From an uncultured Gemmatimonadales bacterium (lineage in GTDB: Bacteria > Gemmatimonadota > Glassbacteria > GWA2-58-10), in NCBI GenBank assembly GCA_964473155.1, contig CAYYNT010000003.1, positions 69,839 through 133,838 on the forward strand: 64,000 bases of DNA. The letters are read 5' to 3'. The translations under genes and the position numbers were made by a program. The notes under the pieces are model-generated. The model saw only the letters and a list, made by a program, of their open reading frames with translations, was not told where the DNA came from and did no database searches. How positions within the stretch are numbered: the first letter of the stretch is position 1; the number at the start of each line of letters is the position of its first letter. This document shows positions 5,287 to 56,355 of this stretch, one piece after another.

Positions 5287-6549
5287 TTATTCGGATATTC
5301 TCAGGATATGCGCGCCAAGCCGGGTCAGTTTGGATTCAAGGTTTTCATATCCTCGATCCAGGTGATAGATACGGCTTATCTCACCGCCGCCCTCGGCTAC
5401 CAGTGCGGCCAGAACCAGGGCTGCGCTGGCCCGCAGGTCCGAGGCCATGACCGGTGCGTGGCTCAGATCCGATGGCCCCTGAATGCAAACCTGCTGTCCG
5501 TTTACCTCCATCCGCGCGCCCAGGCGGACAAGCTCGGGAACGTGAAGAAAACGGTTTTCAAATATCGTTTCAGTGAGAGTGCTTTTTCCCTCTGCGCGTG
5601 TCGCCAGAGCGCAGAACTGCGCCTGCATGTCTGTAGGGAAACCAGGGTAGGGGGCTGTACGGATATCAAATGGTTTCAGGCTGCCGGTTCTTGCGACACT
5701 AAGACTGTCCCCTGTGCGCGAGACAGTGACTCCCGTTTTTTCAAGCTCCTGAATCACAGCCTCCATATGTTCAGGAGAACATTCCTCTATCAGTACGTTG
5801 CCGCCCGTTATCGCCGCCGCCACTGCAAAAGTGCCGGCCTCTATTCTGTCCGGAATCACGCGGTGCAAGGCGCCTCCAAGCTCGCTGACGCCGTCAATTA
5901 TTATTTCGCGTTCTCCCGCACCGCTGATCCGGGCTCCCATCTTGTTGAGCAATCCCGCCATATCTTCTATTTCCGGCTCGCGGGCCGCGTTTTCGATTAC
6001 TGTGACTCCCCGGGCCAGGCTCGCGGCTAACATGACATTGATTGTAGCGCCTACGCTTGAACCGCGAGGACCGCTCAGATCGATCCTCGCCCCATTCAAG
6101 CCGCTGGCGCGCGCGTGAATGTAACCGCGCGAGGTGTCGATTCCGGCACCGAGAGCGGCAAGGCCTTTGAGGTGAAGGTCCATGGCGCGTTGCCCGATAG
6201 CGCATCCTCCCGGCAAGCTGACCTCTGCCTGACCTTTGCGCGCCACGAGAGGCCCGAGTACATAGTATGAGGCGCGCATCCGGCGAACCAGCTCATATGG
6301 GGCGGTGACGCCATTGGCATCGGAGGCGTCCAGCTTCATCCAGCCGGGGCCGCGCTCGACAGTCACTCCAAGATTCTGTAGAACCAGGGCCATTGTCCGG
6401 ACATCCATCAGATCCGGGACGTTTGAAAGCTCGACAGGGCTGTCTGTAAGCAGAGAAGCGGCCATCAGCGGCAGGCATGAATTTTTAGCGCCACCTGTGC
6501 GTACTTGTCCTTTGAGCGGTCCTGACTTCTCAATTACGAATTTGTCCAT
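5287..6549 (-). CDS. murA: UDP-N-acetylglucosamine 1-carboxyvinyltransferase
   Basis: Full-length match to the MurA architecture ([17 protein letters not shown] ... active-site Cys in LPGGCAIG ... [10 protein letters not shown]). Confidence 0.95.
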
Positions 6550-13643: not shown

Positions 13644-16600
13644 TTATTGCTTCTGCTCTTTGTCCTTCTCAACGTTCAGACGCTCGAAATATTTGCGAAT
13701 AAGGATGTTATAGCTTTCCGGGTAAGTTCCACTCCATTTTTCGAAGAGAGATTCGATCTCGCCTTTTTTCAGGGCCGGGTCCAGAATATCCTTTGGCAAC
13801 GCTGCCGGAGTGACTGCGTTGTATGAGCGCGCAGTTTCGCTTTTTCTCTCGTTATCACCGCTTTCGTTTTTCTTCATCGCACGCTGCGCGCTGAGCATCC
13901 GATCAAGAAGACGCTGCTGCCGTTCAAGGGTTTCGGGGCGCACTCCTTTTTGCAGCATTTCCTGAACAAGATCGTGAGCCTCTTTGTTCATTCCCTCAAG
14001 CGCATCTTTAAGACGGCCGGTTTCACTCGATTGTCCGGCCTGTTCGGCCATACGGGCAAGCTGTTCCTGGATTGCTTTCTGTTCGGCAGCCATCTGACGC
14101 AACATCTCCTGGATCCCCCCAGCCGCCGCCCTTGGAGATGGAAGTCCGGGACCTTCGCCTTGACCGTTCGAGCTCTGCTGACGCGCTTTCCTGTTAAGAT
14201 CTTCCTGATGGCGTGAGAGTTGCTCAAGTTTCTTCAGCATCTGATCCATTCCCACGCCGCTGCCGGATTGCATCATGTTGTCACGGTCTTCAATCAGGCT
14301 GAGCATGCCGGCGTTGATTGCGGCAAGAGCGCCGGACGATGAAAGAAACACCTCCTCCTGGTTACGCTGGTCAGCCGAAAGCTTGTCTACTGTTCCCTCG
14401 CTTCTTGCAACCGCCGCATCCAGTATATCCAGCAACCTTATGCTGATAAAGAAATTGTCTCTTGCCGCGGCGACGATGCCGGACATTACTTTATTCAAGC
14501 CCTCCGAGATTTCCTGCTGAAGGGCAGCCAGCTTGAGAACGTCCGGATGGTTGATATCTGTTTCAACTCGCACCGCTTCTGACAGCTCTTCCTGACGGCG
14601 GGACAGGAAATCCAGATTATCGAAGGCCCTGAGCATCGCCTCGGAGACCTGTTCCCGCCACTTTTTTTTCAGCTCCAGGCTGTAACTTTTCATTTTCCTG
14701 TGGACATTCTCCATTCTGTCGCCCACTTCGCGCTGTCTGCCGACGGCTTTATCGGGACGGGATCCGGACATGTCCCTGCCAATCTCGGAAAAAGCGTTTT
14801 TGAAGAAATCGCGGTCCGGGGAGTTCGACTCTTTCTTCAGACTGTCGGCGAGTTCTTTTTCTCCGGCTTTGTCTAAATTGTTCGCCGCGGACTCCATCCG
14901 CTCGAAGACCTCCGCCGTCATCTCTCTCATCTGTTCATTGGCCTCGCCGGGTTCTTTTCCGGCGAGTTCCATTTCCAGTAAAGATTCTCCCCGCTCTCCA
15001 TTTTCAGACGGCTGTCGCTCCCCCGTCATACTCTCCCCTTCCCCGGAGGGAGATATACTGTCCACCGGGCTTTCCTGCCGAGAGTCCCCTGGACGCGAAT
15101 CAGCTTTTGCTGAATCTGCCTGCTCTATTTGAGCTTGCTTAGCGGAAGAATTTTCATCAGCGCTGTCAGCCAGCATCCGCGCCGCCTCGGCCAACTCACG
15201 GGTCCGGTTGACCAGGAAATCCATCTGTTGCTCGAGCTTGACTTTTTCAAGGACGCTGATTGTCTTGTCGAGTTTATCAAGGAGCTTTTCCTGAGAGTAT
15301 TCCAGCTTGTTCATCTGCTCATTCAGGCTCTTGCGGTCAATCTGTTCGAGTGAACTGTTGATTTTGGAGAGCAGTTCTTTTATCTCATCCGTGGATATTT
15401 CTTCCATCAGTTTCTGCACACGCGAAAGCTTTTCGAGAAGTTCAGGCGAACTCGATTCAGCGCGCTGCAGCCGTTCGATGCTCTCCTTCATCTGACCGGC
15501 CAGCTTCCCAACCTGTTCGGTAATCTGTTTCTGACGTTCCAGGGCCTGGCCCAGACGCTGTTTTTCCTGCCAGTCCATTTCTTTTCCACGTTCCAGCGCC
15601 TCCTGCATCTTCTTGACCTGTTCAAGCGTTTTCTGCCCTTCCTGCCCCAGGTTCTGCAACCGCGAGGCTATCTGTTCCTGCTGCTTTTCACTCTGTTTGA
15701 AAATTTCCTGCATTGAGGGGAAACGCAGACGGTTTTCCGCTGTCGATGCGGCTTTGGGACCGCTGACACGGTCGTTGTCAAGGACCGTAAGACGGTAAAT
15801 GATTGATTCTCCCGGAAGAAGCCGCAGTGCGCTCAAATCCCAGTTATATTGCTCCAGAATATGATCATCGCCTAACGAACCGGACGGCAACAGCAGACTT
15901 TGCTCACTCTCCAGCCTTCCGCCCGCTTTTTCTTTTCTGAAACTCAAGATCACCCGGCTTACTCCGAAATCATCCGCCGCCTCGTACATCAGCGGCTGTA
16001 TCATTTCCTCTCCCAAAGTATAATCAGATTCTGGATAGATCAGCATAACGCGTGGAAGTTCGTCCGGGACAACGATAATCGGATAAGAAAGTGTGTCCCT
16101 GTTGATCAAACCCCAGCGATCGTCAAGCCGAAAACTGTAGCGCGTATCGGCAACCAGATTCAACGTGTCGACAAATTCTCGTTCTCCGCTTAGAGCCAGA
16201 TTACGCATTTCACCGCTTTCAAACCGCAGTTTTGCATGGTTCAGAGGATTGCTTGCTTTTCCATACAGGATCACCCGTGTGCCTCGCAACGCACTTATCG
16301 ACCGGTCACGCGTTGTTTCCCAAGGCGATAGAGCTGAATATTGCGGGTATTCATAGCGCAACCTCAGGTCAGTGACGAAAGGATTGCTGATTACTTTCAC
16401 TTTGAACGTATCGCTGACCGCATTCCATTGTGATACAACATAACTGAGGTCATTCTCTACTGTTCCCAGATCGAGACGGTATTCATACTGGTCACGCCAA
16501 TATTGCATTGTCAGGCTTCGGCTGACCTGCCCGGTCTGCCAGGACTCAAAACGCACAGGCTCGGGGCGGCGCATCGAACCGGCTACCCGCACACAGAGTG

Positions 16601-17267
16601 AATCTCCCCGCATGAGCGTTACGTTGCCGGGACGGACAAAAAGCCTGAAATCCCTTTCCTTCTGGATGAGTCCCATTGGATCGCTCCAGTTCTGCAACAC
16701 CTGCCGCATCATCATGGGATCATAAAGACCAAACGCCAGACAGAGTGTGCCAATCACGATCACTGTCAGGCGACGGCGGCGGGTGCGGTCTGCCTGTAAT
16801 GCCTTGAGTCCCTCGAGAATCATCCGTCGAGAGGTCGGCTCTTTTACAGCCGAGGCTGTGCTTTCAAGAGCCGCCGAGACAAGTTCATTTGAATAAAGCG
16901 TTCCGGATTGGAATGTGCATTGCAGGAATTCAAGAGCGGATTCAAGTCCGTTTCTCAGGCCGGGGGCAACCAGATCGCAACGCCTGGCGACAGAGGAAAG
17001 TCTGCCGTATTTCTTCCAGGCGTTCCAGATGCCGCGCCCGGCAATGGCAACGAAAACAGCAATAAGGGATACGATCAGTGCAAGCCGCCAGAGTCCGGGG
17101 AGCCAAAACAGGCTCTCCAGCATTCCAAACAGAAGCAATGCCGCCCCCGAAACACCTGCCAGGCGCAGCAGAATGGCGATCATCTCAGCGCGAACGAGGC
17201 CTGAGCGGATTTCTTTCAAAGCTTGGTTGATGATCTGCGCGGAATATGTTTTGTCGGATTGAGCCAC
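13644..17267 (-). CDS. large membrane-anchored protein with an acidic coiled-coil C-terminal half; DUF4175-like architecture
   Basis: GTG start. Two N-terminal TM helices, a central region of about 400 aa, then about 600 aa of low-complexity Q/E/K-rich coiled coil. The family name is recalled, not verified. Confidence 0.5.
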   Translation of the reverse strand: MAQSDKTYSAQIINQALKEIRSGLVRAEMIAILLRLAGVSGAALLLFGMLESLFWLPGLWRLALIVSLIAVFVAIAGRGIWNAWKKYGRLSSVARRCDLVAPGLRNGLESALEFLQCTFQSGTLYSNELVSAALESTASAVKEPTSRRMILEGLKALQADRTRRRRLTVIVIGTLCLAFGLYDPMMMRQVLQNWSDPMGLIQKERDFRLFVRPGNVTLMRGDSLCVRVAGSMRRPEPVRFESWQTGQVSRSLTMQYWRDQYEYRLDLGTVENDLSYVVSQWNAVSDTFKVKVISNPFVTDLRLRYEYPQYSALSPWETTRDRSISALRGTRVILYGKASNPLNHAKLRFESGEMRNLALSGEREFVDTLNLVADTRYSFRLDDRWGLINRDTLSYPIIVVPDELPRVMLIYPESDYTLGEEMIQPLMYEAADDFGVSRVILSFRKEKAGGRLESEQSLLLPSGSLGDDHILEQYNWDLSALRLLPGESIIYRLTVLDNDRVSGPKAASTAENRLRFPSMQEIFKQSEKQQEQIASRLQNLGQEGQKTLEQVKKMQEALERGKEMDWQEKQRLGQALERQKQITEQVGKLAGQMKESIERLQRAESSSPELLEKLSRVQKLMEEISTDEIKELLSKINSSLEQIDRKSLNEQMNKLEYSQEKLLDKLDKTISVLEKVKLEQQMDFLVNRTRELAEAARMLADSADENSSAKQAQIEQADSAKADSRPGDSRQESPVDSISPSGEGESMTGERQPSENGERGESLLEMELAGKEPGEANEQMREMTAEVFERMESAANNLDKAGEKELADSLKKESNSPDRDFFKNAFSEIGRDMSGSRPDKAVGRQREVGDRMENVHRKMKSYSLELKKKWREQVSEAMLRAFDNLDFLSRRQEELSEAVRVETDINHPDVLKLAALQQEISEGLNKVMSGIVAAARDNFFISIRLLDILDAAVARSEGTVDKLSADQRNQEEVFLSSSGALAAINAGMLSLIEDRDNMMQSGSGVGMDQMLKKLEQLSRHQEDLNRKARQQSSNGQGEGPGLPSPRAAAGGIQEMLRQMAAEQKAIQEQLARMAEQAGQSSETGRLKDALEGMNKEAHDLVQEMLQKGVRPETLERQQRLLDRMLSAQRAMKKNESGDNERKSETARSYNAVTPAALPKDILDPALKKGEIESLFEKWSGTYPESYNILIRKYFERLNVEKDKEQKQ

Positions 17268-17273
17268 AATCTC

Positions 17274-17984
17274 TCACTCACGGGTCAGGGCATAGAAAAA
17301 AATATTCACTCCCATCCTGAGAGCGCTTTCGCGAATCGGTTCCGGATCCTTGTGCACTTGTGGATCTTCCCAACCGTCACCCAGGTCAGTATTCAGGCTG
17401 TAAAACACAACCAGACGGCCATCGACGAATATTCCGAGACCTTTTGGCGGTCCGCCGTCATGTTCGTGAACTTTGGGCAATCCATCCGGGAAATCAAAGA
17501 CAGAATGATAAATTGGAAAATCAAATGGAATTTCCACAAACTCTTTATCCGGAAACACCTTTTTCATCTCACGGCGGAAACCGGCATCCATCCCGTAATT
17601 GTCATCTGCATGCAGGAAACCGCCTTCGCTGAGATATTTCCTCAACCGGATGGCTTCTTCTTCATCGAATATTATATTCCCGTGGCCGTTCAGGTACAGA
17701 TAAGGGTGACGGAAAAGCTCCGGGCTTTTTAAACGCACTTGAGCCTCTTGCTTGTCGACCTCCAATCCGGTATACTTTCTGATCGCGTCGAGCAGGTTGA
17801 TCAGTGAAGAAGGGTTTGAGTACCAGTCTCCACCGCCCTCGTACATCACTCTCGCGATCGTCATCACCGCCGGGCTGGAGGATGAACGGCCAGGAGACTG
17901 TCCCTCAGCCGGCAGATAAAGCAGCAGTCCGGCGGAAACGATCAATGCGGCGACAGTGTTTTTTATCTTCGTCTTTTTCATCAT
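17274..17984 (-). CDS. secreted protein, DUF4159-like
   Basis: Start taken at the internal MMKKTKIKN... with a signal peptide (the longer ORF would overlap the divergent gene). 6 nt upstream of the large protein's GTG, which suggests an operon. Confidence 0.5.
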   Translation of the reverse strand: MMKKTKIKNTVAALIVSAGLLLYLPAEGQSPGRSSSSPAVMTIARVMYEGGGDWYSNPSSLINLLDAIRKYTGLEVDKQEAQVRLKSPELFRHPYLYLNGHGNIIFDEEEAIRLRKYLSEGGFLHADDNYGMDAGFRREMKKVFPDKEFVEIPFDFPIYHSVFDFPDGLPKVHEHDGGPPKGLGIFVDGRLVVFYSLNTDLGDGWEDPQVHKDPEPIRESALRMGVNIFFYALTRE

Positions 17985-18017
17985 TGTTCTGAAAAGTGCA
18001 GTAATCAACCGGGGTTT

Positions 18018-18497
18018 ATGGTCATGGATGCCGAGGTGCGCCGGAAAATCTATCTGGTCCTTTTTCTGTTTGCCGTCTATACGGCAGTCTGCTTCTGGGT
18101 TCCTTACAGCAAGCTCTGGGTGATGAAAGACCTGATGCAGACTCAATCCCGTATGTTTTTTGCCACCCAGTCAGTCGAACAGGTTCACAAATACTTGAGC
18201 GGCAAAGCGGCTGAACTCGAGCTGGATGTACGGCCCGAGGATATAAAGGTACAGACTATCAACGGGGAAATAATCTATATCGAATTAAGCTGGAAAGCTC
18301 CGGTCAATATACTTCTGTTCCGCACCAGTCTGGATTTCAGTCCCAGGATTTTCGGCCTGATCCGTGGTTTCGAAAACTTTTCAACCGGGAGCGAGTTGCC
18401 GGATAGCCTGGTTTCCGAACTGTCTGACAGCACTACCCGCTTCCTGAAAAACCGGAATGTGCTCGGGCGTTCTATTAAAAATTTCTTTTCCCGCTGA
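18018..18497 (+). CDS. hypothetical membrane-anchored protein
   Basis: N-terminal TM (IYLVLFLFAVYTAVCFWV) with reasonable coding composition. Divergent from the DUF4159-like gene. Confidence 0.4.
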   Translation: MVMDAEVRRKIYLVLFLFAVYTAVCFWVPYSKLWVMKDLMQTQSRMFFATQSVEQVHKYLSGKAAELELDVRPEDIKVQTINGEIIYIELSWKAPVNILLFRTSLDFSPRIFGLIRGFENFSTGSELPDSLVSELSDSTTRFLKNRNVLGRSIKNFFSR

Positions 18498-19721: not shown

Positions 19722-20076
19722 TGGTGGAGGCGGTGGGCATCGAACCCACGTCCGAAGACAGGCCGGATATGACCACTACATGCTTAGCCGCCGTTCAGGT
19801 TGTCGTCCTCAAAAGACTACGTCGGCAAGTCTATCTCGGACCATCCGGTTAAGGTCTCGCCCGGAAGTCACCGGCATACAGCCAGGCCAGCCCGTTTTTG
19901 CGACGTCCGTCACCGCTCCACGGGCGGGGATCCTGTGACGGACGTGGATGCCTTTATCAGGCAGCCAGGGCCAAGTTGTCGTTGGCAGTTGTGTTTTTTC
20001 CCGTTTTTTAACGGGGCACGGGGCCCCGGCATGCTGTCATAACCTCCCTTGTCCCCGTCGAAACCATGTCGCCCCC
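19722..20076 (-). ncRNA. ssrA: tmRNA (SsrA), about 355 nt, tag peptide ANDNLALAA
   Basis: Minus-strand 5' end GGGGGCGACATGGTTTCGACGGGG and 3' end GGACGTGGGTTCGATGCCCACCGCCTCCACCA (tRNA-like domain with a G3:U70 Ala identity pair and encoded CCA). Internal ORF GCC AAC GAC AAC TTG GCC CTG GCT GCC TGA TAA = ANDNLALAA** at plus coordinates 19975-19943. Confidence 0.9.
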
Positions 20077-22099: not shown

Positions 22100-24430
22100 T
22101 TACTTCGTAATTAGGAATGTCGCGTCTTTTGCCACCTGCCTGCCGGCCACAGTGTCCGACACTGTCACCATTACATTGTACCTTCCAGGAGGATAGCTCG
22201 CAGCATCTATCGACAAATAGATTGGATCGATATTGCCGGGGCGTTCCCAGTCACGTTCAAACGTTGAAACCACCTTGCCCGTCTCATCTTTGACGCCGAT
22301 CAGTCGACCCAGAGTGCGGATGATCTTCTGTGCAGCACTCAACTCCCCCGCCGTAGAGCTTACCGTATATTCAACACGGATATGCTTGCCGCCCGCAGAA
22401 TCGGGTTTGACATTATACAACTCATAGTAGATGAAAACAGGCTGATCTTTCTTGAACGACGAGGACGGCATCGGCATTATCCGATGCCCTCGTATATTGA
22501 ATTTCCCTGGAGTCTTGTCTTCGACCACATCCGCCGCAAGAAGCAGATCGCTAACGTACAGGCTGTCCGGAGAGCGGAACGAAGGGACCGAATAATTGCT
22601 TTTATATATCTGCATCAGATTGCTCTTGACCTGCTTCATCCTGACAACCAGGTGATAATTCCCGGGTTTAAGCTGCATCCCGATCAGGTCCGGGATCATC
22701 TGGTCTTTTGAAGACACGAAGTTGTTGAGACGGTATGTTTTAGACTGTTTCGCCCTGGTCACCTCATTCCACCAGCTGTCATATACCACTATCTCCAGAT
22801 CGACTGGAATATCTACTGCCCCGAACGGATCCGGCACCTTGATCTGGTCCGTCGGGAGGGCAAAGAACACTCCCATGGCGCTAAGGGTGTCCTGACCTTT
22901 GAGCGAAACCGGGTAGTAGTAAAAATTCATGGGATCTTCCTCGGGCTTGTACTCGAATGTCTCAGTAACTTCTCCCTCGGTGAACCCCCGCTCTGTAAGC
23001 ATCTCCTCTTCCGCGAAAAGGTCCATCAGGCTGCCGTGACGGGCCTGTTCGATGTTGCCCTGAAAATTGCTGAGCTCGTTGGCCAACTGGTCATATTTGG
23101 GATGTATCTCTCCACGTGAGCGGAACAGGGCCACTATATTGCTTCCGCCCATGTTGATTTCTGTCTGAATGTCTGGTACGAGCGCCTCCTCCAGGCGGTA
23201 GACCATACGGTAGACGTTGTTCCGAGCAACAAAATTGTAAAGAAGCGGCTGGGAGCGGTTCTTACTGTAAAGCCAGGTCTCGTTGTCACGGATAGCCCAG
23301 TTGCCGTTAAGGCTTATTTTCTGGTCCGGCTCGCCGTGTTTGATATACACTCGGCCGCGCTCGTCATACCCTGGTTTAAGGGGGCTGTAAAACTTCTTCT
23401 TCACTTCCTCAATCCGGCGGTAATGTTCCACCAGCCGCTCATTTGTCATGGTAGTTACAGTTGGGTCCTTGCGGTTCCAGAATGAGATAAGAAACAGCCC
23501 TTTATGCCCGGAAGGAGTCAGCTTGAACTCCCGTCTCTCGTCACTGGTGGTGATGTCTCGGATATCCTCCAGAGCTTCCTCGGCCAGTTGATCATCCATT
23601 TCTCGCGCGGCGCTGAAATAGGCCTCGCAGGCCAGCTCATTTTCTTCAAGATGCAACAGTTCCTTCGACATCAGAAAACGCTGACGGGCAGTAAGGCTGT
23701 CCAATCCGGCTTTTTCGATGCGGTAAAAAATATCTTTGGCCAGGTCTTTATCGCCGGAGTTGGTATAAATACGGGCAAGCTGGAACAGGAATTCCGGCTT
23801 GTCGTTGTGTAATTCGGACATTTCGTTCAGGAACAGTATCCCGCGTTCGTGGAACTTATCATCGATATAAGCGTCACACAGAGTGTTCAATGTTTTAATA
23901 TCATTGATGTCTTCGCGCACAAGCTGCTCGAGCGAATCCCAGAACAAGGCGTCATCACCGCCTTTTTTCTTGAACCTGTCGCTCACCATGGCGCGCCAGT
24001 ATCTTACTCTGCGGCTCTCTCCATCAATCGCACCAAGGTTTTTAAGACATTCCTGCGCTTCTTTCTCCTTGTTGCGGATCAAGCTTACCTCAACCAGCCC
24101 CTCCCATGCATCCGGAAGATGCTTGTTCATTTCGAGTGCTTTGCGGAAGGTCTTTTCCGCATCCTTATCGTCCTTCCGGTACAACTGTGATCGACCCAGA
24201 TCGACAAGTATCTCGGGGGTCGGCTTGTTGTCTTTAAGATATTTGGATATGGCGTCTCCCGCTTCCTCCCAGCCGCTGTTCTGCACCGCCATGCGGGCAT
24301 ACTCCAGCAGCGCCTGCCCGCTCAAGGTGTCCACCGGAGCGCTCTGCGCCAGGAGCATACCGGACGGAGAAAGGAGGCAGATGATTAATAAAGCCGTGAT
24401 AGCCGAGCCAGTATTATATCTTGACATCAA
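22100..24430 (-). CDS. secreted TPR-repeat plus GWxTD-domain protein
   Basis: Signal peptide and N-terminal TPR-like helices. Central ...FYSPLKPGYDERGRVYIKHGEPD corresponds to the GWxTD-domain core (GW-TDRGR-YI--G-PD) with GW replaced by GY. Confidence 0.6.
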   Translation of the reverse strand: MMSRYNTGSAITALLIICLLSPSGMLLAQSAPVDTLSGQALLEYARMAVQNSGWEEAGDAISKYLKDNKPTPEILVDLGRSQLYRKDDKDAEKTFRKALEMNKHLPDAWEGLVEVSLIRNKEKEAQECLKNLGAIDGESRRVRYWRAMVSDRFKKKGGDDALFWDSLEQLVREDINDIKTLNTLCDAYIDDKFHERGILFLNEMSELHNDKPEFLFQLARIYTNSGDKDLAKDIFYRIEKAGLDSLTARQRFLMSKELLHLEENELACEAYFSAAREMDDQLAEEALEDIRDITTSDERREFKLTPSGHKGLFLISFWNRKDPTVTTMTNERLVEHYRRIEEVKKKFYSPLKPGYDERGRVYIKHGEPDQKISLNGNWAIRDNETWLYSKNRSQPLLYNFVARNNVYRMVYRLEEALVPDIQTEINMGGSNIVALFRSRGEIHPKYDQLANELSNFQGNIEQARHGSLMDLFAEEEMLTERGFTEGEVTETFEYKPEEDPMNFYYYPVSLKGQDTLSAMGVFFALPTDQIKVPDPFGAVDIPVDLEIVVYDSWWNEVTRAKQSKTYRLNNFVSSKDQMIPDLIGMQLKPGNYHLVVRMKQVKSNLMQIYKSNYSVPSFRSPDSLYVSDLLLAADVVEDKTPGKFNIRGHRIMPMPSSSFKKDQPVFIYYELYNVKPDSAGGKHIRVEYTVSSTAGELSAAQKIIRTLGRLIGVKDETGKVVSTFERDWERPGNIDPIYLSIDAASYPPGRYNVMVTVSDTVAGRQVAKDATFLITK

Positions 24431-24861
24431 AGCCCCACGCTCAAGCAGCAGTTGTCTTGAAACAACTCTTAAATTTTACACCAGAGAGCCGAATGTGTTC
24501 AGATTCCAAATTGCAACCGCCATTCTAAATTATAACTTTAAAACAACGCCACAATTGGTTCATTTTAAACAAGTAACGATGTTCAAAGCCTGGCAATTGA
24601 ATGGATGAAAACAGAATTGGAACCCGAGCGATGGTAAAATCGGCGACTGCGCACTCGACAGTTCAGTATTATCCAACTATCGAAATACGGCCCTGTAAAG
24701 GTCAGTAAAAAAACGCGTCAGAATGCTGCCAACGGCCATGCCTGAAACATGATTTACTCGACAGGGCTTGAGGGATGGAGTACAAAAATAAAGCTCCGTC
24801 CCGGCGCTGTCAAGCTATTCCTGACTTAACAGCCCGGTACGGAGCTATAACTAAAGTCTTA

Positions 24862-25785
24862 TCAGAAGCTTTTCGAAACACTTAGCGCCATTCCAGGACC
24901 ATCTTTCGGATCAACCGCGCGCGGCAATAGCACCAGGCTCAGGCTGTTGTTCCGCATGCCGCGGGTCTGGTTGATCTTCTCCATGACCAGCATGTCGATG
25001 GCGCTGATAATATGATTGGCAAGCAGCACCGCCGTGAACTTGTTCCGTCTGCGGTAAGAATCCTCGGCGCTGTTAAACACTTTGTGATACAGAGTCTCGC
25101 TGCTTTCCAGTCCGGTCCAGTCCCAGTTGTACTGGAGAGGGTAAACCGCCTCGCTATAGGCCGCGAGGGCGCGGGCCTCCTCCTCGGCGCTTTGAGCCAC
25201 CGGGATGCCGCCATTGGTGCCGGAATAATTATTGATCCTGGCAATCTGCCACTGATGGCCGTTATAAGTGCGGGTGTCGGTTTCGGGTTGAATGCCCTCA
25301 CGCGACGGGTCATTGTCGTAATCGCCGCTGGAGGTCCACTTGGTCAGGTCCTCGTAGTATTCACCGAAACCTCCGGACATCTCTTCCGGGACTTCTTCCG
25401 GGTTGTTGCGCAGCCCGCCAAGCACGAAATTGCGCCTCGCCTGCCGCGAGATTTCATGATACCGGTCCACGCGATCGTGGGCCTGAGCGTTGAAGAAAAC
25501 CATACCGGTTATCGCGGCGCCCTCGGCCGCGAAATAAGCCCAGCCTCGCCACTGCCCTTCCAGATACTGAGGCAGCCCTGGAACGAGCGCGCCAAGAGCG
25601 ATACGTATCCCGGGATGCAGGTCGCGAACAAATTCAGACCCGCTTTTTTTGAATTCTCCCTCAACAGACCGGCCTGCTGCAATCGGTGACTGTTGCCCTG
25701 TAACCGGATTAACCTGGGCAACCAGAGACGAAGAGCAAAGGAACACGGCCAGCAGAAAAGTCGGCCTCATTATCTCCCCTGTCAT
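24862..25785 (-). CDS. hypothetical secreted protein (N-terminal region DUF5683-like: ALVPGLPQY...)
   Basis: Signal peptide. Resemblance to DUF5683 is limited to the PGLPQ-containing N-terminal segment and is recalled from memory. Confidence 0.45.
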   Translation of the reverse strand: MTGEIMRPTFLLAVFLCSSSLVAQVNPVTGQQSPIAAGRSVEGEFKKSGSEFVRDLHPGIRIALGALVPGLPQYLEGQWRGWAYFAAEGAAITGMVFFNAQAHDRVDRYHEISRQARRNFVLGGLRNNPEEVPEEMSGGFGEYYEDLTKWTSSGDYDNDPSREGIQPETDTRTYNGHQWQIARINNYSGTNGGIPVAQSAEEEARALAAYSEAVYPLQYNWDWTGLESSETLYHKVFNSAEDSYRRRNKFTAVLLANHIISAIDMLVMEKINQTRGMRNNSLSLVLLPRAVDPKDGPGMALSVSKSF

Positions 25786-25874
25786 AAGAAGCCCCTGGAG
25801 TCCCCTCCGGTCCGGAAGAGATCCCAGGGGCTGTTTCAGATTGGACAGTCCTGCTTTTCAGTAACGCTCAAAGA

Positions 25875-26879
25875 TTAAAAATGGGCGGTCAGGGCGAAAA
25901 ACGTACGGTCGCTCAACGGATTGACCCCCAGTTCCCGCGCCAGGTCGAAAGCATAGCCGCGCCAGTTGACGCCGAAACCTATCAGCGCTCCGCTCAGGTC
26001 GCCCTCTTCGCTCAGATAACCGCTGCGCATGGCCAGAATCAGGTCTTCCTTCGGCTCCACAGAGAACTCGGCGCCCACGAAAGCCCCGTCATTGGCCGGG
26101 CTGCCGACCAGGAAACGCTCATAGTCAGCGGCCAGCAGAAGGTTGAACTTATCCTGGTCCAAAAGGTGCTTCAGCACGTTGTAGCCAAAACCTACGCGCA
26201 CGCGGCGCGGCAGACGGTCGGACTGGTATTCGTTTTTGTGCTGCATGTCGGTTCCAACATCCAGTATCGACATTCCAAGCTGCAGCGGAACATCGGTCAA
26301 CGGGCGGTACAGAACCCCCATGTCAACCGCCACGCTCGTACCCACTCCGCCGTCCGCGCTCGACAGCTTTTCCCGGATGTACTTCATAGAGACGCCGACA
26401 TCTATTTTCTTGCTCAGGCGGGTGGCGAACGAGCCGTACATCATAAGCACGCTCTGGCTGTCCAGTCCCTGAGAGCTCTGACCGGTGCCAACAAGCTCGT
26501 TGCTTCCCAGGTCCCAGAGATTGGCCGAAACCGCAATCACTCCAATGTCCTTGATCGGCACGCCGACATTGAACAGGTTGAAACTGATCTGGTCCTCGGT
26601 CTCCTGTCCCATGTTGTCGCTGACAGTGAAGCTGAAACCGTTGTAGCGGGAGAAATAAACCTCGGTGCGGCTAAGCGAGGCCAACCCGGCCGGGTTCCAG
26701 AGGACAGTGGGCATTCCCTCAGCCACACCGGTGTAAGCATGCCCCATACCGATCGCGCGGGCGCCGTTTCTTTCAGTAAACTCGGCTTTGATCCCCTTGC
26801 TTTCCGCGGCATGCAGACGGACGACAAAAGAGAAGGCCAGACAAGCGACCATCGCAAAAAATAGAAGCTTCCTCAGCAT
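25875..26879 (-). CDS. PorV/LptO-like outer-membrane beta-barrel protein (paralog 1)
   Basis: Signal peptide, then GARAIGMGHAYTGVAEGMPTVLWNPAGLA; the same motif occurs in the ORF at 55157-56305. Ends with aromatic F. 49 nt downstream of the PorU-like gene. Confidence 0.55.
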   Translation of the reverse strand: MLRKLLFFAMVACLAFSFVVRLHAAESKGIKAEFTERNGARAIGMGHAYTGVAEGMPTVLWNPAGLASLSRTEVYFSRYNGFSFTVSDNMGQETEDQISFNLFNVGVPIKDIGVIAVSANLWDLGSNELVGTGQSSQGLDSQSVLMMYGSFATRLSKKIDVGVSMKYIREKLSSADGGVGTSVAVDMGVLYRPLTDVPLQLGMSILDVGTDMQHKNEYQSDRLPRRVRVGFGYNVLKHLLDQDKFNLLLAADYERFLVGSPANDGAFVGAEFSVEPKEDLILAMRSGYLSEEGDLSGALIGFGVNWRGYAFDLARELGVNPLSDRTFFALTAHF

Positions 26880-26928
26880 CCTGGTAATCTCCTTGATGAA
26901 TATAAAAGAAAAAGAGAATCAATAATTT

Positions 26929-29900
26929 TCAGCGACTAAGTAAGGCTTTGCCTGTGGCCTCCACCTCCTCGGTGTTATCGAATGCCTCATTAACAGGCCT
27001 GCAGATAATCTTATATAAATATACTCCGTTTGCAACCTTTTCCTGATATTCATCCCGCCCGTCCCAGCGGACCCGGTTGAAACCCGCGGATGCTCCAAAC
27101 ATTCGAAGCTCGCGCACCGGACGTCCGGCCACGCTGAATATCCGGATCAGCACATCCGCCGGGGAACCGAGGTCGAAACATATATCTGTCTCATCGCGGA
27201 ACGGATTGGGATAGTTCAAAACGTTGGCCAGACTCAGCGAGGTTCCGGACTGGCTGACATACAGCATTATTTCTGTCCGGCTCGCATTCAGCGCATTGTC
27301 CGCCGCTCTGAACCTGAAACTGTGCAATCCCTCACTCACCGGATTCAGGCTGACTTCCAGACTGCCCTCCTGATAACTGTCCGTATTGTAGCGGAAATAC
27401 GGTGTAAGATCGGTCGAATAAGATGTTCCCGCATCCACCTCAAGGGCTACCTGATAACCGGGGCTTCCCGTGGTGTTGATCCCGCTCTCGTCTTTCAGGG
27501 CCAGGATCAGCGGACTTCCTTTTGAGATACGGTCCCCGTCGCGCAGCTCACGGCCTTTATAAAGAACGCGTATTTCAGGGCCCGCGCTGTCTGAAAGCTC
27601 AGCGTTCCGCCCTGAAACCTGCATCCTCTGGCCGGCTCCTGAAGCATCGATGCTCTCACTGGTTGAATAACCGATGAACCGTCCGCTGCCAGCGGCCAGA
27701 CTGTCCGAAACTGTCGCCGAAGAAAGGTTCAAGGGCATAATGAACGCCCCGCTGAACCGTCCTCCACTGACTGTCACCCCCCCGTCAAAAAGAACCGACC
27801 CCGCTGGAACGAATTGCACTGCCCGATCAGTTGTGACACCGTACCAGTAACACTGGTACGGGATTGTTACTTTCCTGGAATCACTAAGGAATTTAATCTG
27901 CGCCACGCCTGAAAAACCTGTCTCTATCTGTCCTCCGTTATTCAACACGCTCCCGCTGAACTCTGCCTTTCCGCCGGGTTTAAGCTGTCCGGCTCCGTCA
28001 AGGCTGATACTCATACGGCCTGCCGGTGAATGCAGCAGAAGGGCCGGGTCGCCGAACACCGTGTACTGAGCCGAATTGCTGTACTCGGCGCTTCCCATTC
28101 CCAGGCGGGCCTGAAGCGCCGCCTCACCCAGTGTAACCGCCTCCGTGCCGAACAGTTTCTGCACCAGGAGACGGTTGAGGGCCAGGTTCTGCCCGGCGTA
28201 TGTCACCCGAGTCCCTGCGTATACCGCAATCGCTCCGCCGCCGGAGGCTGTCAGCAAACGCTCTGCCATCGCATCCGTACGATAGCTGTCGAAATAGCCT
28301 ATCGAGCAGGATGAATTAAGCACGAGCGGCAACTTGTATCCGTTGGTCAATAACGGCAAATCCCGTTCCACATCGAACAAAAGCTCCTGAGACCACTGTG
28401 TCGGTCCGCCGTGTCCGATATAGTTGACAAGCAGCGCCCCGCGGTTCCACCATTCCACCAGCTCGCGCGATGCAGACGGTTTCCGCGAGCCGATTTCCGG
28501 CGGATCGAAAGGATAGCTGTCAAGGTACACTTTTTTCCGCACCAATTCCTCGGGTAAAAGCGAATCGATCGATTCGCTGCCCGCGACATGGCCGGAGACG
28601 TCATCGCATGCGCCGCCGGATACATAACCGTCATCCGCGGACAGGATTACGCGACGCACCCAGTCGCCTCGCTCACCGCCCTGTTCGTAACGCGCGACCT
28701 TGTCCGCCACAACCGACGCATCAGCCGCTTTCTGCACCGGGATGCGGCCCAGAGAAATCTGAGGCAGACCGCCGCTTTCGAACCTGACGAACCATTCATC
28801 GTAGGCGACATCTCCGCTGCTGATATATGGGATGATATGATTCGGCCTCGCACGGCCCTCCCCGGTCCAGCCCCTGAAATCATTGTGCCCGTCGCCGAAC
28901 AGCACGGCGAATCGCGGCCGCACGGGCCAGGCATCGAAAGCGTAATGAAGGAAATTCCTGACTGCGGCCGGATCTTTCTGCCCCAGGCCGAATTCATCGT
29001 AAATATCTTCAACAGTGACTACCTGCGTGGAAAAACGCGCCGCGCGCGAAGCCGCAAGCGAACCTGCCTGCGTGGAAAGGGCGCGCGGCGTGATGACCAC
29101 ATATTCAGCGCCGGACATACGTCGCAGGCCGGGAGGATCAAAAAGAGCTATAGAGGCCGGGGCAGCGTAAGCCGAATCAGTCAGCACCACAAAAGAGCGT
29201 AACGGACTGGCGGAGGATGGCAGCGAAAACCTCACCCCGGCGCTGTTCCGTTCGAGGCCTGTCAACAGGACAGGATTCCCGGGGCGGGTGATGTCATAGA
29301 CCTCGGTTTCCCGCGGCTGCGCCTCGGAAATCTGATACACGGACTGACCTTCCGGCCTGACATGATACTCCACTTGGCCTTTGCCATCCATCACGAGAGC
29401 GGTGTTCATGCGCAATTCCACGAATCCCGTGATCCAGTTCAATCCTGAAAGGATAAACCGGTTGCCGCCCTCTATCAAGCAGTTCTCCGGAAGGTTAAGC
29501 CAGTCAGTTGTGAAAATTCTGGCGTCAAATGTGTTGCCGAATCCCAGTTGCATACCGTTAAGGTTTGCATTCCAGTAAACGCTTGCATAACGGGCCTTCC
29601 CGTAAAACTGGCAGCGCAGTTTATTGCCGTTTGAAAGCGGGACGGCCGGGACATTCAGCGTGCGTTCGCGAATGTCCGGACTGTCCCCCGTTTCCACCCA
29701 GGCCCAGAAATCCGGCGACAGATTAAATTTGGACTCCTCACCCTGGAGATCGCTTAAATAGATGTTGTTGCGTTCGAAATGGAACCAGCGCTCTCCGGAT
29801 GTCACTGCCGGCGCTGCGGCGTCAGGGATCGCCGCAATCTCTTGCATGCGCAAACCGGAAGCGCCCGGGTCTCCCCAGGACAGCCAGTAAACAGCCCGGT

Positions 29901-30960
29901 TGTCATAGCGATGGACCAGGCTGCTCACCGCTCCGGTGTCATCCACGCTGAACCGGTCAAGCCCCTGGCCGTAGAAAATCACGCGGTCTCCCTGACCAAA
30001 AGAACCATCGGCCACTCCAGTCACCCGTATCGCCACCTCATGAAGATCCGGCATATCGGCTGACGGGTCTTCGTCCTGCATTTTCCCGCCGCTGAAATAG
30101 AGGCGAAGGCTGGAGGGAGCGATTCCGGAAATTTCTACGCCCGAGGCCAGAAGAGCGGCCCCGCTGATTGAATAAACACCGGAGGAATCGATTCGAACCG
30201 CGGCCCAGTGCGGCGCGCGGTCGAAAGGCGATGCGGAGGATGCTGCAAGACGGGTGCGCGGAGTAAGCCAGGCCCCGGCGCTCCGCCAGTTCAGAAAAGC
30301 CCCCCTGACAAAAGGGTCCGCAAGGCCATCGGGGCGATCGGATGGGCTGTTCGATTCCGCTGAAAGCTGACCGCTGAAAGAGATATCGATATCCATACGG
30401 CGGCGGATCGTGAGCCTGCCGTTTGACGGGTCATAACTGAAGGGATAGACCGTAAGCTGAAGAACTCTGTATTCGCGGAACTGGAAAGGACCGGACAGAA
30501 CGAGCGGTTCTTCCGGGTGTTCCCCACCCTGAAGATATTCCTGCCCAAAAGCCGGAAGGGAAAGCGATTCCCGGCTTTCATTCTCATCTCCCGGCGGGGC
30601 AAGGGCCGGAAAAAGCGCGCCGGTTCTTGCAAAAGTCCTGTCCTCTCCGGATATGGAACCTCTTGCCGCACAACCGGGAGGGACAACCAGCGCCACGCTG
30701 TAACACGGCATGGAGGGATAGCCCGGACGGCTGATCACCTCGGCCCCATCCGCCTCAATCCTCGTGTAGTCTGCGCCGCGCCATGAGAAAGGTTCGAGCG
30801 ACCATGCGGGAAGCTCGAATGTCAGACGCACGCCATCCTGTCCGGAGGACAGCAGGGAAAACGGTTGCTCCCCGGCTCTCAGCACAACCGGAAATGAGGC
30901 GAGGACCATGATCAATGCAGCCCCGAGGGCTGCCAACAGTTTAATCCGTCCGGCTCTCAA
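26929..30960 (-). CDS. peptidase C25 (gingipain/PorU-like) protein with a T9SS C-terminal sorting domain; candidate T9SS C-terminal signal peptidase
   Basis: Catalytic-domain start YVVITPRAL...VEDIYDEFG...AVRNFLHYA...FAVLFGDG. Clan CD His/Cys dyad in NYIGHGGPTQW and LNSSCSIGYFD. CTD: NVLNYPNPFRDETDICFDL...VLIRIFSVAGRPV...WDGRD...GVYLYKI. Confidence 0.7.
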   Translation of the reverse strand: MRAGRIKLLAALGAALIMVLASFPVVLRAGEQPFSLLSSGQDGVRLTFELPAWSLEPFSWRGADYTRIEADGAEVISRPGYPSMPCYSVALVVPPGCAARGSISGEDRTFARTGALFPALAPPGDENESRESLSLPAFGQEYLQGGEHPEEPLVLSGPFQFREYRVLQLTVYPFSYDPSNGRLTIRRRMDIDISFSGQLSAESNSPSDRPDGLADPFVRGAFLNWRSAGAWLTPRTRLAASSASPFDRAPHWAAVRIDSSGVYSISGAALLASGVEISGIAPSSLRLYFSGGKMQDEDPSADMPDLHEVAIRVTGVADGSFGQGDRVIFYGQGLDRFSVDDTGAVSSLVHRYDNRAVYWLSWGDPGASGLRMQEIAAIPDAAAPAVTSGERWFHFERNNIYLSDLQGEESKFNLSPDFWAWVETGDSPDIRERTLNVPAVPLSNGNKLRCQFYGKARYASVYWNANLNGMQLGFGNTFDARIFTTDWLNLPENCLIEGGNRFILSGLNWITGFVELRMNTALVMDGKGQVEYHVRPEGQSVYQISEAQPRETEVYDITRPGNPVLLTGLERNSAGVRFSLPSSASPLRSFVVLTDSAYAAPASIALFDPPGLRRMSGAEYVVITPRALSTQAGSLAASRAARFSTQVVTVEDIYDEFGLGQKDPAAVRNFLHYAFDAWPVRPRFAVLFGDGHNDFRGWTGEGRARPNHIIPYISSGDVAYDEWFVRFESGGLPQISLGRIPVQKAADASVVADKVARYEQGGERGDWVRRVILSADDGYVSGGACDDVSGHVAGSESIDSLLPEELVRKKVYLDSYPFDPPEIGSRKPSASRELVEWWNRGALLVNYIGHGGPTQWSQELLFDVERDLPLLTNGYKLPLVLNSSCSIGYFDSYRTDAMAERLLTASGGGAIAVYAGTRVTYAGQNLALNRLLVQKLFGTEAVTLGEAALQARLGMGSAEYSNSAQYTVFGDPALLLHSPAGRMSISLDGAGQLKPGGKAEFSGSVLNNGGQIETGFSGVAQIKFLSDSRKVTIPYQCYWYGVTTDRAVQFVPAGSVLFDGGVTVSGGRFSGAFIMPLNLSSATVSDSLAAGSGRFIGYSTSESIDASGAGQRMQVSGRNAELSDSAGPEIRVLYKGRELRDGDRISKGSPLILALKDESGINTTGSPGYQVALEVDAGTSYSTDLTPYFRYNTDSYQEGSLEVSLNPVSEGLHSFRFRAADNALNASRTEIMLYVSQSGTSLSLANVLNYPNPFRDETDICFDLGSPADVLIRIFSVAGRPVRELRMFGASAGFNRVRWDGRDEYQEKVANGVYLYKIICRPVNEAFDNTEEVEATGKALLSR

Positions 30961-30974
30961 GACATCCCCGGGGC

Positions 30975-31157
30975 TTAGAATGACCTGGCCTCATCGATCA
31001 GCATGATCGGTATGTCATCCTTGATATCATAAATCAGGCGGCAGGCGTGACAGACCAGCTCATTCTGGTCCTGACGGTATTCGAGGTCCCCTTTGCATTT
31101 AGGACAAACCAGGATTTCAAGCAGTTTCGGGTCCAGCATCCTGTCCTCCGTTTGCAA
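30975..31157 (-). CDS. Trm112/YcaR-like small zinc-ribbon protein
   Basis: [14 protein letters not shown]...[25 protein letters not shown] matches the Trm112 (DUF343) pattern. Confidence 0.6.
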
Positions 31158-31165
31158 CTTGGTTT

Positions 31166-32089
31166 TTAATTGTCAGGCGTGTAGCCGACCATTTTGAGAA
31201 AGGAATCGTTCTTGCGCCAGTTTTCCCTGACTTTTACCCACAGGTCGAGATATACGCTCGAGCCTGCCAGTTCCTCGATTTTGACTCTCGCCTCCCGCCC
31301 CAGTTTTTTCAACTGTTCTCCGCCCCGTCCGATAAGAATGGCTTTCTGCCCCTCTCGCTCGACATATATCACGGCTTTGATATATGCCTTGTTTCCAGGC
31401 CGCTCCTGATACTCTTCAACCATCACCGCCGCGGCGTACGGCAGCTCCTGGCGGAGCTGTTCGAATATCGTCTCGCGGATCAGCTCGGCGGCGAAAAAAC
31501 GCATCGGCTGGGTGGCTATCTGTTCCTCGGAGTACATGAAATCACCGGCGGGGAGACGCTTGACCACCTGGGCCAGAAGCTCCTCGAGACCATCACCGCC
31601 GAGCGCGCTTACCGGAACTATCTCCTCGAACAGATTTTCTTTCGCGTACCCGGCGATAAGCGGCAGCAGACGTTCCTTCTCGATAAGATCGATCTTGTTC
31701 AGCGCGAGTATGAGAGGAATTTTAAGGGAACGCAGACGGCCGCCGAGTTCCTGTTCCAGCGATGCATCATTCTGCGAGGCATCCAGAATGTAGATGACTA
31801 TGTCCGCGCCGCTGACCGCCTTGAAACTTGTCTGGATCATCATTTTCTGCATGCGGTCGCGCGGCTGGATCACCCCCGGAGTATCGATAAACAACGCCTG
31901 GTACCCAGGTCCGCTCATAATTCCAAACACCTGCTGCCGGGTTGTCTGCGCCTTTGAGCTGACAATCGAGATTTTTTGTCCCAGCAGATTATTCATCAGC
32001 GTGCTCTTGCCGACATTGGGCTTTCCGGCGATAGCAACCACTCCGCTGCGTTTATTAATTGTTAAACTCTGTCCCTTTTCTGCGCTCAA
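31166..32089 (-). CDS. era: GTPase Era
   Basis: [11 protein letters not shown]1 motif, DTPG G3 motif, NKID G4 motif, and a C-terminal KH domain. Confidence 0.95.
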
Positions 32090-32235: not shown

Positions 32236-32312
<77 letters not shown>

Positions 32313-32491: not shown

Positions 32492-32632
32492 TCAGAAGGC
32501 TTTCCTTTCCTTGCGCGGACGTATTGAGATCGTGGTCTTGCAGGCTATGCAGTTGAAGAGGTACAGAAAACGGTCCGCTTTCAGCGTGACCGGCTGCTTG
32601 CCCAGATAGACCAGATTCTTGTGTTTGCACAT
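32492..32632 (-). CDS. small (46 aa) zinc-ribbon protein
   Basis: Strong SD GGGAGAAGGAAA before the ATG. MCKHKNLVYLGKQPVTLKADRFLYLFNCIACKTTISIRPRKERKAF (CxxH...CxxC). Confidence 0.4.
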   Translation of the reverse strand: MCKHKNLVYLGKQPVTLKADRFLYLFNCIACKTTISIRPRKERKAF

Positions 32633-32903
32633 TTTCCTTCTCCCAGTAACTGACATATTTACCTCTTCTGCTGTATTCGAATTAAATAGCAATAATTGTA
32701 CCATATATTACAGTACACTCCGCCTGTTGTTTCATTTCTTTAAAATTCTTTACCTGATTGCTGACGAGGGAAAATCACTGCTTCCGTTCCACGCAATATA
32801 AACGAGATATGATTCTCTTTTACTGAAACATTGGAAAAAACCGCCGGGTGAGCAGATACCGGGGGATTGGTCTGATGGATTTAAGGGAAGAGGATGGAGG
32901 CTT

Positions 32904-56305: not shown

Positions 56306-56355
56306 CTTCTCCTCCATCATGCTGGCAATTTACAGTCCGTACCTGCCGGACGGGC

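Follow-up and report, generated by a model that had tools for sequence, protein, structure and literature searches.

In Porphyromonas gingivalis, the PorU and PorZ proteins of its type IX secretion system (T9SS) keep their C-terminal domains (CTDs), with which they bind the outer-membrane proteins PorV and PorQ, and PorV shuttles cargo (PMC10202324). The 2016 TXSScan survey found the complete system in Bacteroidetes only (PMC4793230), and a 2024 paper lists Gemmatimonadetes among the phyla of the Fibrobacteres-Chlorobi-Bacteroidetes group where a T9SS may also be present (PMC11285876). Here we describe a locus from a Candidatus Glassbacteria bacterium, a member of a lineage that GTDB treats as a class of Gemmatimonadota (PMC11316326, PMC11596202). 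The locus very probably encodes a T9SS cell-surface processing pair, consisting of PorU and a PorV-type barrel. It lies in a stretch of 64,000 nucleotides (nt) of contig CAYYNT010000003.1, hereafter the window. Four co-directional minus-strand open reading frames (ORFs) fill 25875..32089, all of them where an original prediction made from the letters of the DNA had placed them, and a fifth, p307, ends the conserved string one gene past that interval. The genes are as follows, in the order of transcription:

31166..32089, minus strand: era, first gene of the string, 307 amino acids (aa), GTPase Era (30S ribosome maturation)
30975..31139, minus strand: Trm112/YcaR-like zinc-ribbon gene, 54 aa (the longest ORF extends to 31157), with CPKC...CHAC motifs
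26929..30960, minus strand: PorU, a C25 peptidase of 1343 aa, T9SS C-terminal signal peptidase/sortase
25875..26879, minus strand: PorV-type outer-membrane barrel, 334 aa, with a signal peptide, GARAIGMG...WNPAGLA at the N-terminus and a C-terminal Phe
24862..25785, minus strand: p307, 307 aa

By its similarity to known families, the 1343-aa protein is PorU and not a cargo gingipain, in agreement with the original prediction. It scores 572.3 bits with the NCBIfam PorU model NF033707 (cut-off 420), with which it is colinear across about 1070 residues (residues 251-1321, model positions 6-1078 of 1095). Its best sequence match among solved structures in the PDB is P. gingivalis PorU (6ZA2; E 6.5e-56, 192.8 bits), while gingipain R was matched in the same search at E ~6e-7. 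In the 6ZA2 alignment, NYIGHGG of the window protein lies opposite NYAGHGG, the Cys of NSSCSIG faces its PorU counterpart, and the CTD is paired with the final ~100 residues. The catalytic His and Cys are invariant among 9 homologs. Pfam assigns the protein a Peptidase_C25 domain (256.9 bits) and a Propeptide_C25 domain (42 bits), giving the order signal peptide, Propeptide_C25-like N-terminal domain (residues 35-226), C25 catalytic domain (620-975) and CTD (~1240-1343). The IGHGG, NSSCSIG and NYPNPF motifs that had been read from the translation are all present, the last at residues 1249-1254, and the CTD that had been attributed to the peptidase itself is borne out by its alignment with the PorU CTD of 6ZA2. 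The functional elements are:

28405..28419, minus strand: IGHGG motif with the predicted catalytic His850 (residues 848-852), aligned with 6ZA2
28297..28317, minus strand: NSSCSIG motif with the predicted catalytic Cys885 (residues 882-888), aligned with 6ZA2
26929..27240, minus strand: PorU CTD, ~105 aa, starting near LSLANVLNYPNPF and aligned with 6ZA2 residues 1053-1137

The CTD also matches Pfam FlgD_ig at residues 1261-1317 and the PorZ-CTD model. Within the window, a hidden Markov model of this region matches only PorU itself and p1191, a second large protein that is described below.

Like P. gingivalis PorU (PG0026; 6ZA2), the window protein combines a C25 domain carrying the aligned His/Cys dyad with a long CTD that aligns with the uncleaved CTD of PorU, and its gene stands immediately upstream of a PorV-type barrel gene. 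It differs in several respects. Overall similarity is low (the 192.8 bits are spread over roughly the C-terminal 730 residues), the host belongs to Glassbacteria/Gemmatimonadota, and the gene is strung together with era and trm112. It also has about 220 extra N-terminal residues, which match the gingipain propeptide family (PF08126) and are covered neither by the NCBIfam PorU model nor by the alignment with 6ZA2. Among environmental PorUs of similar length encoded ahead of PorV-type barrels, colinearity with the window protein starts at residues ~37-150. A long N-terminus is therefore common and not peculiar to this locus, and these proteins probably share the Propeptide_C25-like region. Another C25 protein that came up in the comparison, P0012 (1143 aa), was set aside as probably not PorU because neither PorV nor Trm112 is encoded beside it.

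The product of the next gene, a PorV-like barrel in the original prediction, belongs to the PorV/PorQ family (NF033709, 115.7 bits, cut-off 90; Pfam PF19572, 28.4 bits, cut-off 27). Its AlphaFold (AF2) model, built with 41 homologs, has 14 long strands (predicted local distance difference test, pLDDT, 86.3; predicted template modelling score, pTM, 0.81). The top two Foldseek matches of this model are PorV chains of Flavobacterium johnsoniae, 8gl6_F (E 2e-14) and 6h3i_F (E 1.4e-11), with template modelling (TM) scores of 0.68-0.69, and FadL and TodX rank behind them. The family and the PorV-like fold thus stand as predicted, while the PorV equivalog model was missed, as discussed below. Like PorV (Fjoh_1555/PG0027, LptO; 6H3I, 8GL6 chain F), the protein is a 14-strand barrel of the FadL fold with an N-terminal GARAxGMG...WNPAG segment, and it is encoded directly after porU. 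Unlike the solved PorV (402 residues), it has 334 residues, with ~20% identity, and its relatives in other lineages sit behind era and/or trm112 without porU. The PorQ equivalog model gives 33.7 bits (cut-off 220). An identical barrel sequence is present on a JGI metagenome contig and on three short Logan contigs.

The two proteins could also be read as a secreted gingipain-like cargo protease with a CTD and a generic FadL-type transporter. The gingipain-type propeptide domain, which lies where the solved P. gingivalis PorU chain is unaligned, would suit such a protease, and the barrel has strong fold matches in FadL and TodX. Against this, the PorU model was passed along nearly its whole length, the match to PorU in the PDB is about 50 orders of magnitude better than that to gingipain, and the long N-terminus recurs in environmental PorUs next to PorV-type barrels. 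PorV provides the two best fold matches, ahead of FadL, for a barrel that also passed the PorV/PorQ family model, and porU and porV are adjacent in many lineages. We rejected the cargo-gingipain assignment on the profile scores and on the 6ZA2 and gingipain R E-values, and regard it as extremely improbable.

Having identified a PorU-PorV-type pair, we turn to the question of which barrel of the window is PorV, which the original prediction had left open. The window encodes a second member of the PorV/PorQ family, preceded by a large CTD protein:

56356..59931, minus strand: p1191, 1191 aa, beta-rich and with a CTD of the T9SS type, 35 nt upstream of the 387-aa barrel gene
55157..56320, minus strand: second PorV/PorQ-family barrel, 387 aa, PorQ-leaning

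The 387-aa barrel scores 140.8 bits with NF033709, 60.7 bits with PorQ (cut-off 220), 41.6 bits with PorV2 (cut-off 325) and 31.6 bits with PorV. The sequence match to PorV in the PDB is better for the 334-aa barrel (E 1.2e-4) than for the 387-aa barrel (E 0.07). The neighbours of the two types were counted in 80 metagenome loci, obtained by scanning metagenome contigs with an alignment of barrels and looking up the neighbours:

Barrels more like the 334-aa protein: 7 behind PorU, 2 behind era with trm112 between, 0 behind a p1191-like gene
Barrels more like the 387-aa protein: 0 behind PorU, 0 behind era, 32 behind a p1191-like gene

Since barrels of the 334-aa type trail PorU and never p1191-like genes, the 334-aa protein is a PorV candidate despite its short length. 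Scores and neighbours thus largely settle the question in favour of the porU-adjacent barrel as the better candidate of the two paralogs. By its gene context, the 387-aa barrel is the partner of a large CTD protein, and the two form a separate pair that is widespread. A practical rule follows, namely that paralogs of the PorV/PorQ family can be distinguished according to whether the partner encoded upstream is PorU or a p1191-like CTD protein.

The CTD of p1191 was recognized in several ways. Its last ~100 residues align with the CTDs of PorU homologs and weakly match the PorU and PorZ CTDs, one homolog carries Pfam Por_Secre_tail, and the CTD portion of its structure model matches the CTD of a T9SS substrate (8glk_D). 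Outside the CTD, p1191 has no Pfam or NCBIfam family match. As judged from these similarities, p1191 is a CTD-bearing protein within the window, and as a second such protein beside PorU it shows that the CTD signal is in use here. Because PorU and PorZ of P. gingivalis keep their CTDs to bind PorV and PorQ, a PorZ/PorQ-like role is attractive for p1191 and the 387-aa barrel. Like PorZ-PorQ, they comprise a CTD protein and its own barrel of the PorV/PorQ family. Unlike PorZ-PorQ, p1191 has no similarity to PorZ outside the CTD (23.1 bits with the PorZ model, cut-off 260, from the CTD only), and the 387-aa barrel misses the PorQ cut-off. To our knowledge, porZ and porQ are not adjacent in P. gingivalis. 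The pair may therefore be a PorZ/PorQ-like analog, with similarity confined to the CTD. An outright assignment of p1191 as PorZ was rejected, the structure model being poor (pLDDT 60, pTM 0.41) and its matches to the PorZ and PorU folds having TM scores of ~0.1.

Some neighbours of barrels of the 387-aa type were recorded alongside. Immediately upstream of the p1191-barrel pair and co-directional with it lies the gene of a 1153-aa TonB-dependent-receptor-like protein (60035..63496, minus strand); the protein has a CarboxypepD_reg domain at its N-terminus and also a Plug domain. GWxTD-like genes directly follow the genes of 387-aa-type barrels in two metagenome loci (L081, L090). In the window, a 776-aa protein with TPR and GWxTD domains is encoded downstream of the porU cluster (22100..24430, minus strand), a position that is conserved in Glassbacteria. 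The gene contexts give hints of a link between GWxTD proteins and barrels of the PorV/PorQ family.

The PorU-PorV-type pair itself is normal. Its sole unusual feature is the tight conserved string in which it stands behind era and the Trm112-like gene. The identity of Era is clear (NCBIfam NF000908, 347.6 bits, cut-off 237; TIGR00436, 269.6 bits), and its Pfam architecture combines MMR_HSR1 with KH_2. The zinc-ribbon protein passed Pfam PF03966 Trm112p (57.8 bits, cut-off 22). It resembles the YcaR/Trm112 family in being a single Zn-knuckle domain of ~54-60 residues with the CxxC...CxxC pattern. In Escherichia coli, ycaR is located between lpxK and kdsB; the window gene differs from it in lying between era and porU and in staying below the cut-off of the NCBIfam YcaR equivalog (NF008806, 53.7 bits, cut-off 126). 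The function of Trm112/YcaR is not known in any bacterium (PMC5372719). The last product of the string, p307, has a signal peptide and hydrophobic segments. Its family comprises 258 representatives (50%-identity clusters) at E<=1e-3 among 1.84 billion proteins, and of 31 members that were sampled, 15 have weak matches to Pfam DUF5683, the best at E 2e-7. A literature search on DUF5683, GWxTD and T9SS in Gemmatimonas and Gemmatimonadota found nothing useful.

The link of the pair to era, noted in the original prediction, recurs in all 9 non-identical Glassbacteria loci that we compared (L005-L013), each as far as its contig reaches. The order era-trm112-porU-porV-p307 is kept in every one of these loci that is long enough to show each gene, with gaps of 24-39, 14-18 and 49-54 nt between the first four genes and with PorU identities of 44-65%. 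A PorU scan of a species-representative genome collection, made with a narrowed alignment, reached only Glassbacteria-level relatives, of which six were found. More distant lineages keep parts of the string. Loci L095-L097 have the order trm112-porU-porV-p307-like, and PorU there scores 615 bits on the PorU model. The P0006 contig has trm112-porU-porV, with a PorU only 26% identical. The order is era-trm112-barrel in L033, L034 and L101, era-barrel without trm112 in L099 and L100, and trm112-barrel in L024. A p307-like gene follows the barrel in L095 and L034 also. Adjacency of porU and the barrel gene is seen in all Glassbacteria loci, in L095-L097, on the P0006 contig and in the 7 metagenome loci counted above. 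Both era and trm112 are missing from another five PorU-barrel loci whose upstream sequence is long enough to show them (L015, L031, L032, L040, L058). Downstream of the barrel in L034, L099 and L101 are genes for a GGDEF-domain protein, a zinc-ribbon protein and a peptide-chain release factor (release factor 2 in L034), joined in L099 and L101 by genes for RNase R and an aminoacyl-tRNA synthetase. In L095 (10001..17224), porV is followed by a p307-like gene and by genes for an NHL-repeat protein, a 1074-aa protein and a BamA-like Omp85 protein; the 1074-aa protein has a 23.6-bit local match to SprA, far under the cut-off.

Distant lineages, too, have the barrel behind era and/or trm112. The link of the pair to these genes most likely goes back to an old gene neighbourhood, passed on by inheritance, which porU joined. 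In our reading, one broad clade has long kept a PorV-type barrel behind era/trm112 among housekeeping genes, and some of its branches, including Glassbacteria, have porU between trm112 and the barrel. A mechanistic tie between ribosome maturation and secretion appears less likely.

It might be asked whether PorU and the barrel have functional partners, and not just passive neighbours, in the Trm112/YcaR-like protein and perhaps in p307. The zinc ribbon might then act in the cytoplasm on expression or modification tied to the biogenesis of the outer membrane or surface coat, and the attachment module might have p307 as its membrane accessory. Such a partnership would fit the position of trm112 directly upstream of the porU or barrel gene in Glassbacteria, L095-L097, the P0006 contig, L024, L033, L034 and L101, as well as the trailing p307-like genes in Glassbacteria, L095 and L034. 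It would also fit the unequal divergence of these lineages, which are deeply separated (38-44% identity to the window protein for Era, 27-35% for the barrel and 33% for PorU), while the Trm112-like copies beside the distant barrels remain 68-74% identical. On the other hand, Trm112 has no signal peptide and belongs to a family tied to methyltransferases of the translation apparatus, the neighbourhood is otherwise one of housekeeping genes (era, RNase R, prfB, aminoacyl-tRNA synthetase) for which an inherited order can suffice, and the contigs concerned may all come from one phylum. Moreover, trm112 is absent from the five PorU-PorV loci listed above and from L099 and L100, where era and the barrel gene stand together. 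We consider such a functional partnership unlikely. The more specific proposal that the Trm112/YcaR-like protein and p307 are conserved accessories or dedicated regulators of the PorV-type barrel module in Gemmatimonadota-related lineages seems to us rather improbable. If it is true, bacterial Trm112 would for the first time be placed in a functional context, and a translation-linked operon (era, trm112, rnr, prfB) would be connected with the assembly of the outer membrane or surface coat. The inherited neighbourhood remains our preferred explanation of the string.

Calculated from the longest-ORF starts, the gaps are 8 nt between era and trm112, 14 nt between trm112 and porU, and 49 nt between porU and the barrel gene, as had been reported. 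The ATG at 31139, five bases after GGAGGA, is the more likely start of the Trm112 gene and is the one used by public gene calls (54 aa); with it the first gap becomes 26 nt, so this one of the three figures probably needs correction. For PorU, one gene caller goes 8 codons later (1335 aa), and the homologs favour the TTG at 30960. The barrel gene has AAGGAG eight bases upstream of its ATG. The Shine-Dalgarno usage claimed for this organism, there described as strong, has the support only of a simple count, which found Shine-Dalgarno-like cores upstream of 17 of 42 longest-ORF starts versus 18% of internal in-frame start codons; clear sites precede trm112, the barrel gene, rpsA and p1191. The lineage had also been called GC-rich, which the sequence does not bear out, the guanine-plus-cytosine (GC) content being moderate (54% in the window, 57% in the locus).

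No hairpin was found in the three internal gaps of era-trm112-porU-barrel. Hairpins do occur after the barrel gene, in the window and in its relatives, and after p307:

25790..25832, minus strand: GC-rich hairpin and then UUCUUAU, placed directly after the barrel gene and shortly ahead of the p307 ribosome-binding site
L005 ~6492..6534 and L006 ~6426..6466: counterpart hairpins in relatives, found also in L009, L010 and L011
24782..24846, minus strand: strong hairpin and UUUAUUUUUG, starting 15 nt past the stop codon of p307

The 101-nt stretch enclosing the first hairpin folds at -38.7 kcal/mol (z -3.06), and the 181-nt stretch enclosing the hairpin after p307 folds at -63.9 kcal/mol (z -4.16). 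A hairpin with a U-tract is present at the matching position after the barrel gene in 6 of 6 Glassbacteria loci, and the stem sequences are unrelated in the more distant ones. Conservation of position with differing stem sequences is the pattern seen in intrinsic terminators. The hairpin at 25790..25832 is likely an intrinsic terminator or attenuator, and as a leaky terminator it would likely give porV and p307 different expression levels; the hairpin after p307 is likely an intrinsic terminator. A promoter-like site at 24813..24785 was discounted because it lies inside the latter hairpin. Given hairpins after porV and none in the internal gaps, we take era-trm112-porU-porV to be the transcription unit, which would be terminated or attenuated behind porV; p307 would depend on read-through or be expressed on its own. 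The transcriptional joining to era that had been claimed is thus favoured by the short gaps, the hairpin-free interior and the conserved hairpin after the barrel gene, and it is a deduction from the sequence.

Taken together with what is known of P. gingivalis, a mechanism can be proposed for the pair. PorU would be exported by Sec and then by the T9SS through its own CTD. It would retain this domain and by means of it bind to the 14-strand PorV-type barrel, whose gene lies 49 nt downstream. Its Cys885/His850 dyad would remove the C-terminal sorting domain from cargo that PorV delivers from the translocon, and PorU may also pass the cargo onto a surface glycolipid. At the gene level, porU and porV would be transcribed with era and the Trm112/YcaR-like gene up to the hairpin and U-tract, where transcription would end or be attenuated, and the DUF5683-like p307 gene would come next. 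The presence of PorU, two barrels and a CTD protein leads us to infer a complete T9SS in this host, whose remaining components would be encoded elsewhere in the genome.

Several observations weigh against assigning the locus to a T9SS surface-processing pair. The 334-aa barrel scores 52.9 bits on the PorV equivalog NF033710, far under its cut-off of 250, and is ~60 residues shorter than the solved PorV chain, so it may differ functionally from PorV. TIGR04183 gave no match to the PorU CTD at E<=0.01; the CTD of the PorU ortholog in L095 passed this model. PorK/L/M/N, SprA/Sov, PorT, PorP and PorW were not found with NCBIfam models among the window ORFs of at least 150 aa. In L033, L034, L099 and L101 the barrel gene stands behind era without an adjacent porU, so it is the barrel family, and not the sortase pair in itself, that is tied to era. 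Lastly, the evidence for co-transcription consists solely of spacing, missing hairpins and consensus scans, and the consensus may not be that of this phylum.

Part of this evidence would also fit a reduced or alternative CTD-sorting system, one comparable to PorU2/PorV2 that lacks the PorKLMN motor/ring and the SprA translocon. No T9SS core gene was seen in the 64-kb window, the 334-aa barrel fails the PorV equivalog cut-off, both barrels match PorV2 weakly, and the 2016 survey had the complete system only in Bacteroidetes. However, since T9SS genes are normally spread across several loci, nothing can be concluded when a single window lacks them, and the later paper names Gemmatimonadetes among the phyla that possibly have a T9SS (PMC11285876). 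The window PorU, moreover, scores only 137.1 bits on the PorU2 model NF052324 (cut-off 450), while the canonical PorU model was passed. The PorU2/PorV2 assignment was rejected on this score and on the PorV2 scores (NF052325, cut-off 325) of 24.0 bits for the 334-aa barrel and 41.6 bits for the 387-aa barrel. We regard a reduced system as quite unlikely and keep to a PorU-PorV-type pair that probably belongs to a T9SS.

The original prediction had presented the locus as a T9SS core outside classical Bacteroidetes. This is not new in kind, because the listing of Gemmatimonadetes (PMC11285876) and the NCBI label of close barrel homologs, 'PorV/PorQ family protein [Candidatus Glassbacteria bacterium]', came before. 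The locus leaves the understanding of the T9SS unchanged. What it adds is a PorU/PorV-type pair with good support in Glassbacteria, a class that has hardly been studied. This class belongs to Gemmatimonadota, a phylum of which the literature we found says only that a T9SS 'may' occur. It also yields two gene-context leads, the deeply conserved era/trm112-barrel neighbourhood and the widespread pair of a large CTD protein and a PorQ-like barrel, which could guide experiments on bacterial Trm112, the DUF5683-like p307 and p1191.

Other features of the window were noted in passing. Upstream of the string there is a tRNA gene:

32237..32312, minus strand: tRNA-Lys(CTT), 147 nt upstream of era, identified with ARAGORN and Rfam (RF00005, 70.2 bits)

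Farther upstream of this gene lies a small ORF (32494..32654, minus strand) of 53 aa, or 46 aa by gene callers, which has two cysteine pairs and no family match. On the other side of the cluster, a tmRNA gene (19722..20076, minus strand) encodes the tag peptide ANDNLALAA (ARAGORN; Rfam 190.7 bits). Unrelated to PorU and PorV, a 1207-aa protein with a weak DUF4175 match is encoded beside a DUF4159 protein at 13644..18146 (minus strand), a pairing known from BatA-D/aerotolerance-type operons.

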